Virus genome (UHGV): UHGV-0262016
Strand: one strand, 5' to 3'
Source: a virus
DNA length: 12,937 nt
In this document: positions 2,784 through 12,593 of the stretch, one piece after another
Layout of the letters: the number at the start of each line of letters is the position of its first letter
Position numbering within the stretch: the first letter of the stretch is position 1
Program-made: the position numbers and the translations under genes
Notes under the pieces: model-generated
What the model was told of the DNA's origin: nothing
The model's database searches: none
The model's input: the letters and a program-made list of their open reading frames with translations, nothing else

Positions 2784-3110
2784 ACATGGAGTGTTGTAGC
2801 GGGGTTGTCACTTAAGCGTATGGTCAACCTGACAACCCGGTGTCCTCAACGGGGAAGGAATAACCCCGCCATACTTACCGCCGCGCCATTTCGCGGAGTG
2901 CCACAACCGGAAGCGCACGGTCGACGAAAATTTAACGACAGGCTATCTATGAACCAGCTACCTCGCCGTGCGCTTTCGCGTTATGGTCTGACTTTTCAGG
3001 GAAATATCCTTTCAGTAAACTGTCAGTGCCGGATGCTCACCCGTGTCCGGCGCACGCACTCCACCTCACCCGTGGAGAACTCCTTAATCACCAACCCTCA
3101 GGAGGGTGAA

Positions 3111-10408: not shown

Positions 10409-10971
10409 TGATTAATCGAACCAAACTGGAACACATTCTCGAATATGCCAGGCAGCAGAAATGTATTGGGCAACTTTGTAAAATTCCACCAGGAGATATG
10501 GTTGAAATCGTGGAAATGGCCATGCGTAAGGCTGGCAACTCTCCGGTAACTCCGGCTCGCCTGCCTGGTGGTTTCACCATTGAGGATGCGAAGGAGTTAC
10601 ATGAAGACCTGGTTCGCAGCCACATAAGCCAGGCTTTAAGTGGTGAAAAGATGAAAAAGAACGATCGCGATGCTGATTTGCGCTGGATTCATGGCGTTAT
10701 AGTACAGGCAGCGTGGTTTGTGAAAGCTTCACTGGATGCGTTGCCTGAACCGCTGCGGGAGGAGAAGGGAGGAAGTGCCAACTGTACTGCCAGTCATGGT
10801 ACAACCGACAATCCACCAGTACCAGGCAAACAGACTGACGAATTAACCATGCTGGTTAAGCAATTGGTCAGTCAACTGAAGAAAGTGAAGCCGGACTGTA
10901 AATTGCCGGATAAGGCGATGGACTACCTGAAGCGGAACGAACTGATAAGTGCGGAGGATGTTTTGCGATGA
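10408..10971 (+). CDS. Hypothetical 187-aa protein
   Basis: ATG at 10408 overlaps the previous stop (TAATG); SD AAGGGAG 7 nt upstream. Confidence 0.55.
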   Translation: MINRTKLEHILEYARQQKCIGQLCKIPPGDMVEIVEMAMRKAGNSPVTPARLPGGFTIEDAKELHEDLVRSHISQALSGEKMKKNDRDADLRWIHGVIVQAAWFVKASLDALPEPLREEKGGSANCTASHGTTDNPPVPGKQTDELTMLVKQLVSQLKKVKPDCKLPDKAMDYLKRNELISAEDVLR

Positions 10972-11051
10972 CCTGGCCTGAAGCATTCACAACGGTAGGA
11001 ATTGCGATGGCGGTGGCGCTGGTGGTGTATTCGATTTGCCGTTGGGGATAA
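10968..11051 (+). CDS. Possible 27-aa hydrophobic peptide (MTWPEAFTTVGIAMAVALVVYSICRWG)
   Basis: ATG at 10968 overlaps the previous stop (ATGA); SD GGAGG 10 nt upstream. Ends 10 nt before a strong terminator. Too short for statistical support. Confidence 0.3.
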   Translation: MTWPEAFTTVGIAMAVALVVYSICRWG

Positions 11052-11060
11052 CAAACAAAA

Positions 11061-11087
11061 ACCCCGGATTGATGGTCCGGGGTTTTT
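11061..11087 (+). terminator. Strong intrinsic terminator at the end of the rightward early gene cluster
   Basis: Perfect 8-bp stem ACCCCGGA/TCCGGGGT with 7-nt loop, followed by TTTTT; an A-tract lies upstream. Confidence 0.8.
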
Positions 11088-11423
11088 GAAGGAAACAAAA
11101 CAGAAACAACAATTGCCGTTACCTGTTGTTACCATGGCAAGTAAACGCATCTCAGGCGAGCGCATTGCACCGTTCTGACGCAGATAAATTAGCCTGGATA
11201 GATGGTGCTGGCAATAAAAAATAGCGTTTTCTTATCGGTGTCGGTAAGATTGCTGCGGGTGCTTGAGGCTGTCTGCCTCGGGCATGCCACTGTAAGGCAG
11301 GCAGAGAAAAGCCCCAGTTAACATTACGCGTCCGGCAAGACGCTTAACATTAATCTGAGGCTCCCTATGCATGACAACATCAGGTTAGCCTCTTACGTGC
11401 CGAAAGGCAAGGAGAAGCAGGCT

Positions 11424-11579
11424 ATGAAGCAGCAAAAGGCGATGTTAATCGCCCTGATCGTCATCTGTTTAACCGTCATAGTGACGGCACTGGTAACGAG
11501 GAAAGACCTCTGCGAGGTACGAATCCGAACCGGCCAGACGGAGGTCGCTGTCTTCGTAGACTACGAATCTAGAGAGTAA
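11424..11579 (+). CDS. hokD: Hok/Gef-family type I toxin (51 aa), HokD/RelF-like
   Basis: Product MKQQKAMLIALIVICLTVIVTALVTRKDLCEVRIRTGQTEVAVFVDYESRE is a Hok-family signature, nearly identical to HokD/RelF as recalled. SD GGAG 9 nt upstream. An in-frame upstream ATG at 11367 (SD GAGG 6 nt upstream) gives a 70-aa mok-like extended frame. Confidence 0.8.
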   Translation: MKQQKAMLIALIVICLTVIVTALVTRKDLCEVRIRTGQTEVAVFVDYESRE

Positions 11580-11649
11580 GAGTGACCAGGCGGGGGAGAA
11601 ATCCCTCGCCACCTCTGATGTGTCAGGCATCCTCAACGCACCCGCACTT

Positions 11650-11670
11650 AACCCGCTTCGGCGGGTTTTT
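11650..11670 (+). terminator. Intrinsic terminator at the hok mRNA 3' end
   Basis: AACCCGC-TTCG-GCGGGTT followed by TTTTT. The same 20-bp core recurs at 12498-12517. Confidence 0.75.
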
Positions 11671-11685
11671 CGTCGCATTATGAGG

Positions 11686-11796: not shown

Positions 11797-11976
11797 ATGA
11801 GCTGCCCACTCAAAAAACACACGCGGTTGAGTATTCCGCCTCGCGATAAAAGCGTTGTGGCAGTCCCTCGCCCAGCGATTGATGAAAACTGCGCACATCG
11901 TGAACAAGTGAAAAATGCTTTTGATTTCGGTTTTTCTCGTTATGAGAAAGCCATGGAAGAACTTTCAAAAGTGTAA
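11797..11976 (+). CDS. Small ORF upstream of the Doc-family toxin; candidate antitoxin of non-Phd type
   Basis: ATG at 11797 with SD AAGGA 9 nt upstream. Product MSCPLKKHTRLSIPPRDKSVVAVPRPAIDENCAHREQVKNAFDFGFSRYEKAMEELSKV (59 aa). Ends about 20 nt before the toxin start. Role inferred only from its position. Confidence 0.45.
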   Translation: MSCPLKKHTRLSIPPRDKSVVAVPRPAIDENCAHREQVKNAFDFGFSRYEKAMEELSKV

Positions 11977-11994
11977 TGATGGGTATTGTGCTCT

Positions 11995-12480
11995 ATGGCT
12001 GAGATTGTTGAAGGAGTGCATTACCTTACGGTTGATGATCTTGTTGAAATCAATCGTTCCCTAATTGAATTACAGACGCCAGATGAGCCCGTTGGTGTTC
12101 TGAGTCCAGATAACTTAAGTTCTTCTCAGGCCCGTCCCAGCATGGTTCGATGGTATGAACAGACTAATGACATGTTTGTACTGGCATCGGTATTGATTGA
12201 AAGTCTGATTCAGAATCACCCGTTTGCTAATGCGAACAAACGAACAGCTATGATGGCTGGTTACGTCTTCTTGTTGTTGAATGGCTATGAGTTAACAGCA
12301 CCAGGCGATGAAATCGTGGAAATGGCAGAGGGACTGGCCTGCAAAATCTATACTCGAGAAGATCTCGAGAACTGGTTGTGTTATTGGTCTCGCGCGTATG
12401 ACAGCCGGGAATTATGTAAAACAGGCGCAACTATTGTTTTGTATGAAACTATCAAGCTTAAAATAGAACAGCAAAACTAA
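11995..12480 (+). CDS. Doc-family (Fic/Doc fold) toxin, 161 aa
   Basis: Contains the Doc signature H-x-F-x-N-A-N-K-R (HPFANANKRTAMMAGYVFLLLNGYEL); the N-terminal segment (YLTVDDLVEINRSLIE) is also Doc-like. Start taken as ATG 11995; a TTG at 11986 is possible. Confidence 0.75.
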   Translation: MAEIVEGVHYLTVDDLVEINRSLIELQTPDEPVGVLSPDNLSSSQARPSMVRWYEQTNDMFVLASVLIESLIQNHPFANANKRTAMMAGYVFLLLNGYELTAPGDEIVEMAEGLACKIYTREDLENWLCYWSRAYDSRELCKTGATIVLYETIKLKIEQQN

Positions 12481-12496: not shown

Positions 12497-12518
12497 AACC
12501 CGCTTCGGCGGGTTTTTT
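12497..12518 (+). terminator. Intrinsic terminator after the Doc gene (second copy of the 20-bp terminator repeat)
   Basis: AAAACCCGC-TTCG-GCGGG followed by TTTTTT; core identical to 11651-11670. Confidence 0.75.
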
Positions 12519-12593
12519 GTTTTACGTATTCTGGTTTACAATCCACAGGCCAGCCTGAACAACTGGCACCTGCTGCGCCAGCAGAGAAAACCG

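Follow-up and report, generated by a model that had tools for sequence, protein, structure and literature searches.

The locus examined here raises the question of whether a hok-type toxin gene in a viral genome belongs to a complete hok/sok module that regulates its own expression, or whether it resembles the promoterless hokD of the K-12 relBEF operon. An initial annotation, made from the sequence of a 12,937-nucleotide stretch of UHGV virus genome UHGV-0262016 (the whole of which is referred to herein as the window), favoured the first possibility on the basis of complementarity between two segments expected to lie at opposite ends of the toxin mRNA. This proposal is upheld by our analysis, wherein all the elements of a self-regulated module were found and proved to be conserved, while K-12 hokD matches positions 11410-11670 only. 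We are therefore highly confident that positions 11245-11670 hold a type I toxin-antitoxin module of the hok/sok type and the hokD/hokW clade that is both complete and autonomous, and that lies in the early-right (nin-like) part of a lambdoid prophage. The pairing between the two ends is the classic lock on the toxin mRNA, so that the finding, though correct, is an ordinary one. At the levels of family, clade, annotation and experiment the system is known already, and the diversity of alleles in the Sok tail and its target loop is the sole point that is mildly new. There is little significance beyond getting the annotation right: RefSeq labels homologues of this locus as hokD alone, whereas a correct annotation would name mok and sok as well as hok and place the Sok RNA on the minus strand.

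The window is a segment of a lambdoid prophage with repressor-like and cro-like genes as well as genes for replication and early genes of the DUF type. At most 61% of it is covered by any one E. coli genome, a level typical of mosaicism. Megablast searches recovered a homology block extending from 11249 to about 11653-11680 as one unit in 101 phage records, and the block is matched in 4,718 of 5,426 complete E. coli genomes, with a median of two copies per genome and a maximum of nine. Homology with the loci of phage 933W and of E. coli begins at 11249, and the identity of the module to loci from 933W, E. coli, Shigella and E. albertii is 90-94%. The features that make up the module are listed in Table 1.

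Table 1. Features of the hok/sok-type module, with positions numbered as in the window
Feature	Position	Strand	Basis or remark
Candidate hok promoter -10 box, TAAGAT	11245-11250	+	Proposed from the boxes of homologues, which have the same spacing
Predicted full-length hok mRNA, about 413 nt	11257-11669	+	Rfam start, terminator hairpin, homology block
tac, 5' translational activator element, GGGUGCUUGAGGCU	11257-11270	+	Pairs with fbi, with the metastable partner and with ucb
tac partner in the nascent transcript (5' metastable hairpin)	11275-11288	+	Fold of truncated RNA
ucb, anti-SD box, AAGCCCC (AGCCCCAG when extended to 11316)	11309-11315	+	Partner of the mok SD (closed form) or of tac (open form)
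mok Shine-Dalgarno (SD) sequence, GAGG	11357-11360	+	Six nt before ATG 11367
mok frame, 70 aa	11367-11579	+	Open reading frame list; overlaps hok in the same frame
Sok-target hairpin loop, complementary to the Sok 5' tail	11367-11381	+	Local fold
dcb, downstream box, AGGUUAGCCUC	11382-11392	+	Open-form partner of the mok SD region
hok toxin gene, 51 aa	11424-11579	+	Pfam PF01848 HOK_GEF; SD GGAG at 11411-11414
Stable 3' UTR hairpin	11589-11610	+	Fold; predicted stop for 3' exonucleolytic trimming
fbi, fold-back inhibitory element, CCUCAACGCACCC	11631-11643	+	Fold, alignment, duplex energy
Terminator hairpin, AACCCGC-TTCG-GCGGGTT, and T run	11650-11668	+	Fold
Sok promoter: -35 TTGCCT (11410-11405), 17-nt spacer, -10 TAACCT (11387-11382)	11382-11410	-	Identical to that of 933W/Sp5
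Sok-like RNA, about 70 nt	11305-11375	-	Fold and sokW alignment; ends predicted

The 51-amino-acid product of the toxin gene, starting at ATG 11424, matches Pfam PF01848 with a score of 79.8 bits against a cut-off of 22, and also matches PHROG 251 ('MokW-like host killing'). Public records name the exact peptide Hok/Gef, and at least 1000 public contigs carry it; NCBIfam Hok models match it as well, but below their strict cut-offs. A mok-like reading frame had been proposed to begin at an in-frame upstream start with a good SD, and this frame is indeed present as a 70-codon ORF beginning at ATG 11367, with GAGG located six nucleotides upstream of the start codon. This SD is invariant in the alignment of homologues described below, the 19-codon extension that distinguishes mok from hok is kept in 49 of 56 unique modules, and the exact 70-amino-acid Mok-Hok product was encountered on 123 public contigs.

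Within hok, the UAC codon for Tyr47 (11562-11564) lies in a CUACGAA sequence that forms the loop of a small hairpin (11557-11571, with 11557-11560 pairing with 11568-11571), and this loop resembles the anticodon-loop motif of tRNA-Arg that is used by TadA. The TACGAA sequence at this codon is invariant in all 32 aligned modules. For hokD and related mRNAs, A-to-I editing by which this Tyr is recoded to Cys has been reported (10.1101/2025.08.07.668861).

Comparison with Rfam, which had been suggested as a check, revealed a single family scoring above its gathering threshold anywhere in the window. This family, RF01794 ('sok'), matches the plus strand at 11257-11429 with 109.6 bits against a gathering score of 59, and the match is full length, with model positions 1-157 all accounted for. 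Although it is named for sok, the model terminates in the AUG of hok and so represents the hok mRNA leader, and therefore its first position at 11257 marks the likely 5' end of the mRNA. Taken together with the conserved position of the -10 box, this indicates that the hok mRNA probably starts at 11257. The boxes of homologues (TAGAAT, TATAAT, TATATT or TACAAT) are likewise located 6 nt from a conserved GGG start, and the promoter has no good -35 element. A transcript beginning at 11254, as implied by the pairing initially drawn, is thus disfavoured, and three of the proposed base pairs lie upstream of the probable start. Neither the hok promoter nor the Sok promoter was flagged by a scan for sigma-70 consensus promoters, an outcome explained by their agreement with the consensus at only about 7 of 12 positions each.

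At the other end of the transcript, the 3' segment had been described as lying just upstream of a terminator, and a hairpin (11650-11668) followed by a U run is present there. A simple terminator scan did not flag this structure because two of its five T residues are absorbed into the stem. Further upstream, the helix of the 3' UTR hairpin is 96.6% paired across the alignment and exhibits compensatory changes. By extension of the model for plasmid R1, this hairpin may serve as the point at which 3' trimming stops.

The central piece of evidence is the complementarity between the two ends. Positions 11254-11268 read TGCGGGTGCTTGAGG and positions 11631-11646 read CCTCAACGCACCCGCA, and these segments can form 15 Watson-Crick pairs interrupted by one bulged C (11637), with a predicted energy of -27.3 kcal/mol (RNAduplex). 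When every 15-mer in the window was compared with the 90 nt located at the same downstream distance, this pairing ranked first of 12,520 (mean -9.1, standard deviation 3.1), and the observed energy was not attained in any of 2,000 dinucleotide shuffles of the 3' segment. Thus, the complementarity with one bulge that was originally reported is real and goes far beyond what chance would give. Folding of the transcript, another of the suggested checks, gave a minimum free energy (MFE) structure for 11257-11669 of -179.6 kcal/mol (z = -7.0), wherein the closing helix is the same tac/fbi pairing. The conserved part of the duplex consists of 12 base pairs formed by 11257-11268 with 11631-11643 (-21.1 kcal/mol). 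The outermost pairs, 11254-11256 with 11644-11646, are not conserved outside the hokD/W clade, which is consistent with a 5' end at 11257. Given this placement of the 5' end, these three pairs probably fall outside the transcript, and 11644-11646 extends fbi only if transcription begins upstream of 11257. The second-best complementarity of the same geometry in the window, between 2684-2701 (CGCGTGCGCTGAGCCGCA) and 3042-3058 (CGTGTCCGGCGCACGCA), has an energy of -24.6 kcal/mol with the two segments about 340 nt apart, and is probably due to chance.

For comparative analysis, we fetched 47 genomic and 80 viral loci and aligned 32 modules, all distinct and intact, that come from Escherichia, Kluyvera, Photorhabdus, Pantoea and Citrobacter, together with 933W. 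Absence of the 5'/3' pairing from homologous loci had been named as an observation that would speak against the proposal. Instead, duplex predictions made separately for each sequence with RNAduplex reveal that the 12-bp tac/fbi duplex is kept, bulged or not, in 32 of 32 intact modules spanning five genera, with energies from -18 to -27 kcal/mol. The tac/fbi columns of the alignment are 89.8% paired despite misalignment at the bulge, and they include compensatory exchanges of U-A for C-G and of G-C for A-U. Column-wise counts understate conservation in Photorhabdus because the copies from this genus lack the bulge and were shifted by one column by MAFFT, a difficulty that the per-sequence predictions resolved. 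Cognate duplexes are on average hardly stronger than non-cognate ones (-22.0 versus -20.7 kcal/mol), a comparison that discriminates weakly overall because most clades share the same tac.

Position 11260 in tac covaries with two different partners, forming U-A in 19 sequences and C-G in 11 with fbi, and U-A in 19 sequences and C-G in 12 with its partner in the metastable hairpin. Across the 32 sequences, 93% of cells in the metastable hairpin are paired, compared with 35-55% when the partners are slid, and the covariation is coupled. The full-length structure as a whole is 85.7% paired on the alignment, compared with about 40% after the partners are displaced by 1-3 columns, and 34 of its pairs have changed on both sides, a number reached by none of 500 shuffles. 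Gultyaev, Franch and Gerdes reportedly described, in 1997, such 'coupled covariation' as a signature of the hok mRNA family, and our comparison of 32 loci reproduces this signature of the hok folding pathway. Because compensatory changes occur across genera, the RNA structures appear to be under purifying selection. Decayed hok copies are also common among the fetched loci, including one that lacks tac (L010), one that lacks fbi (L014) and two that lack the leader (L036 and L041).

The same elements are predicted to switch between two architectures. In the closed form, the mok SD region CUGAGGCU (11355-11362) pairs with ucb, and this helix is present in the aligned full-length structure. It carries a C·A mismatch that we take to be the same as that in R1. 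In the open form, tac and ucb form a 7-bp helix that is 99.6% paired; being invariant, this helix yields no covariation signal. The mok SD region is then expected to form a local hairpin with dcb (-13.2 kcal/mol), the outer helix of which is 88.7% paired. Enforcing the open form in the full-length RNA costs 22 kcal/mol (-157.5 versus -179.6 kcal/mol), whereas in an RNA cut at 11612, back to the hairpin at 11589-11610, the cost is only 1.2 kcal/mol (-140.0 versus -141.2 kcal/mol). By thermodynamic prediction, the open form is therefore near-isoenergetic with the MFE structure of the truncated RNA, without being that structure itself. Given this drop in cost upon loss of the 3' end, the sequence encodes the known logic in which fbi locks the molecule and removal of fbi unlocks it. 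The modelled structures thus agree with the original suggestion that the fold-back arrangement, closed by tac/fbi, keeps the full-length mRNA inert.

The names of the ucb and dcb boxes and the definitions of the elements follow Le Rhun et al. (PMC9841398). Another segment, 11387-11401 (AGCCUCUUACGUGCC), was considered as the open-form partner of tac and rejected, in that the resulting fold costs 11 kcal/mol more than the fold that combines tac/ucb with SDmok/dcb. This rejected box is 87% paired on the alignment, with U-G, U-A and C-G found at the key pair. Published mutational data indicate that A106G stabilises the closed form and that G4, C5 and U6 pair with the anti-SD box (PMC9841398). Since both these data and the energy cost favour the upstream box as the partner of tac, we treat 11382-11392 as dcb.

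The antisense RNA had been expected on the minus strand around 11330-11410 and had not been pinpointed. The strand was predicted correctly, but the position must be revised, with the promoter at 11410-11382 and the predicted RNA at about 11375-11305. The minus-strand search that had been recommended thus yielded a promoter, a hairpin and a U-tail arranged as in sokW. The promoter is near-invariant in 56 modules. Its 7 of 12 consensus positions leave it below the scan threshold, and its -10 box with surrounding sequence (AGGTTAGCCTCTTACGTGCCGAAAGGCAAGG) is identical in the window, in 933W (sokW) and in E. coli M8. From a predicted start at about 11375, some 7 nt past the -10 box, the RNA would consist of a short single-stranded 5' tail and a long imperfect hairpin followed by the U-tail UUUUCUCU, finishing at about 11305. 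The hairpin and U-tail fold with an energy of -32.9 kcal/mol (z = -4.7), and the RNA coincides with the sokW feature in the aligned 933W locus (L001, 3007 to 2937). Primer YO-421 of Takada et al. turns TAGGTTAG into CCGGCTCG and thereby alters exactly the sokW -10 box TAACCT (PMC8621323). Antitoxin activity was lost as a result of this -10 ('pro-less') mutation, and was restored when sokW was supplied in trans (PMC8621323).

These elements can be assembled into a pathway wherein the features, their conservation and covariation, and the energetic switch come from the present analysis, while the ends of the transcripts, processing at the 3' end, the instability of Sok, toxicity and the biological role are inferred from the literature on R1 and hokW. 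The weak promoter with its -10 box at 11245-11250 would give rise to a hok mRNA of roughly 413 nt from 11257, and in the nascent transcript tac would be kept in the metastable hairpin with 11275-11288. Once the 3' end is completed, pairing of tac with fbi (11631-11643) should close the molecule, with ucb sequestering the mok SD, and the closed molecule would be inaccessible both to ribosomes and to Sok. Slow 3' trimming to the hairpin at 11589-11610 would then strip off fbi, allowing tac to pair with ucb and the mok SD region to pair with dcb, such that the hairpin loop at 11367-11381 offers a target for the 5' tail of Sok. The unstable Sok RNA of ~70 nt would bind this loop and block translation of mok, and hence the coupled translation of hok, with the resulting duplex being destroyed. 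Should Sok synthesis stop, because the element is lost, transcription is shut off or the prophage is induced, the stored mRNA would be translated and the 51-amino-acid Hok peptide would damage the inner membrane. The steps of 3' exonucleolytic processing, cleavage of the duplex by RNase III, differential RNA stability and killing upon Sok decay have been described for R1 (PMC9841398) and in part for hokW-sokW (PMC8621323).

The closest known system is hokW-sokW of 933W/Sp5, which is 92.7% identical to the window over 405 nt (11249-11653). The homologous 933W locus is annotated with mokW, hokW and 'sokW antisense RNA', and shares with the window the order tac, ucb, sok, mok, hok, fbi. The Sok promoter, Sok hairpin, tac and fbi are identical in the two, and the toxins differ only in their last two residues. 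Both modules reside in lambdoid prophages and have the same small ORF of 27 codons just upstream. The allele of the target loop and Sok 5' tail is ATGCATGACAACATC in the window and ATGCTGAACACATGT in 933W, with a 2-nt deletion before the mok ATG, and the 933W loop has a YUNR motif that is missing from the loop in the window. Moreover, an intrinsic terminator directly follows fbi in the window but not in 933W, and the module in the window is located between early-right genes and a phd/doc pair, whereas the 933W copy is close to attR.

K-12 hokD (relF) of the Qin prophage belongs to the same toxin clade and exhibits 95.8% identity, but only over 11410-11670, a stretch that takes in the SD and coding sequence of hok together with the 3' hairpin, fbi and the terminator. 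It follows that the K-12 copy has no promoter, no tac or ucb, neither the Sok gene nor its -10 box, and no start for mok. The R1 hok/sok (parB) system has the same architecture and folding pathway according to published definitions (PMC9841398), including the tac/fbi pairing, the metastable hairpin, the closed ucb/SDmok and open tac/ucb helices, the coupling to mok, and an antisense Sok with a 5' tail. It differs from the window in that the tac/fbi helix of the window has a bulged C and in that the host element is a prophage rather than a plasmid. At the DNA level, a search of plasmids gave only short leader stretches that could be aligned with classical plasmid hok loci, and the amino acid identity between HokW and R1 Hok is 44% (PMC8621323).

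Given these findings, readings other than that of a working hok/sok module can be weighed. The complementarity might have arisen by chance or reflect a generic terminator or small-RNA structure, such as that of isrK, that is unrelated to hok regulation. Rfam does report an isrK match at 11590-11671, but with 26.4 bits against a gathering score of 50, and the alignment matches the hairpin and the terminator only and not the sequence between them. The sub-threshold matches to isrK and rsmX at 11585-11671 were accordingly set aside as generic hairpin-plus-terminator resemblance. This explanation is refuted by the ranking of the pairing, by the shuffles and by the compensatory conservation in 32 modules from five genera, and we assign it virtually no weight. 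It is also conceivable that, for all its intact appearance, the locus is as silent in function as the chromosomal hok genes of laboratory E. coli, being carried as passive prophage cargo that never produces toxic levels of Hok. Intact chromosomal hokA, hokB and hokC reportedly cause no post-segregational killing and show no response to rifampicin (work cited in 10.1101/2025.08.07.668861), and therefore an intact sequence does not guarantee activity. The poor -35 element of the hok promoter and the frequency of decayed copies, among them the four noted above and K-12 hokD without 11249-11409, point in the same direction. However, every regulatory element is intact here, the compensatory changes found in different genera point to purifying selection acting on the RNA structures, mok is open in most modules, and the 92.7% identical hokW-sokW is transcribed, toxic, controlled by Sok and able to affect phage release (PMC8621323). 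We consequently judge a silent locus to be quite improbable.

The role of the module is a separate matter. Takada et al. demonstrated that hokW-sokW forms a toxin-antitoxin system of type I in which Hok is toxic and is controlled by Sok with partial dependence on RNase III and Hfq, that sokW RNA is lost and HokW appears upon RecA-dependent induction, and that phage release is halved without the locus (PMC8621323). By analogy, the most likely role of the module in the window would be the same, with the toxin silent in the lysogen and Hok produced upon induction to speed lysis and phage release. The same RNA circuit might instead serve mainly in prophage addiction, or in abortive infection or exclusion of other phages. 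Work cited in PMC8621323 is described there as having found that R1 hok/sok stabilises plasmids and reduces the plating of T4, hok genes are four-fold enriched in prophages (10.1101/2025.08.07.668861), and the module adjoins a second toxin-antitoxin pair, phd/doc-like, at 11797-12480. Against this, the sole direct test of a close orthologue revealed a role in lysis and release with no effect on lysogen growth (PMC8621323), and hok reportedly shows no enrichment near defence systems. No feature of the sequence discriminates between these roles. We regard an addiction or exclusion role as possible though on balance unlikely, and continue to favour a contribution to lysis and phage release.

One stretch of the module departs from the general pattern of conservation. 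The Sok-target loop, which includes mok codons 2-5, is the sole hypervariable spot in an otherwise conserved hokD/W module, with entropy peaking at 0.86 bit at 11369-11378 and remaining at or below 0.5 elsewhere. There are 21 loop alleles among 56 unique modules, and that of the window was seen in only one other locus (L115). Copies that reside together in E. coli ECMA0423 and in S. flexneri SFBU1023 have different loop alleles, and this hypervariability suggests that the loop is a specificity determinant that limits cross-talk. A U-turn motif, YUNR, in the target loop is said to have been linked by Franch et al. in 1999 to fast binding of Sok, and the R1 loop presumably has this motif, unlike the allele in the window, in which no YUNR was found at 11363-11384. 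The motif is not universal in the clade, being missing from 7 of 18 distinct loop alleles (that of the window and six others).

We tentatively raise the idea, while considering it rather doubtful, that the 10-15 nt shared by the Sok tail and the loop (11367-11381) are a specificity cassette under diversifying selection and that co-resident modules carry mutually orthogonal alleles. If so, the Sok RNA of one prophage could not silence the hok of another, the presence of up to nine copies per E. coli genome would be explained, and the hok/sok loop would be a natural, swappable address label, of which the window holds a rare version without the U-turn motif.

The surroundings of the module also have noteworthy features. 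Downstream on the plus strand is a second toxin-antitoxin pair, consisting of a 59-codon ORF at 11797-11976 (PHROG 2208, unknown function) and a Doc/Fic toxin gene at 11995-12480 (TIGR01550, 126 bits; Pfam Fic), and the same hokD-doc neighbourhood occurs in E. coli M8. The prophage thus carries two adjacent toxin-antitoxin systems, hok/sok and phd/doc, an arrangement relevant to prophage stability and to the timing of lysis upon induction. The terminator sequence AACCCGCTTCGGCGGGTTTTT at 11650-11673 recurs after doc at 12497-12520 as a 24-nt direct repeat with 96% identity, and gives the impression of a cassette boundary that has been reused in the mosaic of the prophage.

Upstream of the module, a hydrophobic ORF of 27 codons (MTWPEAFTTVGIAMAVALVVYSICRWG; 10968-11051, plus strand) overlaps, through the sequence ATGA, the stop codon of the gene before it. 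About 50 of the fetched loci, including 933W (L001, 2762-2839), where it is unannotated, have this ORF conserved immediately upstream of their hok module, and its ATG is in many of the loci the exact starting point of the homology block. Searches of Pfam and PHROG assigned it to no family, and in other phages the identical sequence is grouped with DUF551 proteins of 121 amino acids. Between this ORF and the module, at 11056-11088, there is a strong bidirectional terminator-like hairpin of 13 pairs flanked by an A-run and a T-run, which sets the hok module apart from the early genes upstream and on whose minus strand several weak, sub-threshold Rfam matches to leaders and small RNAs fall.
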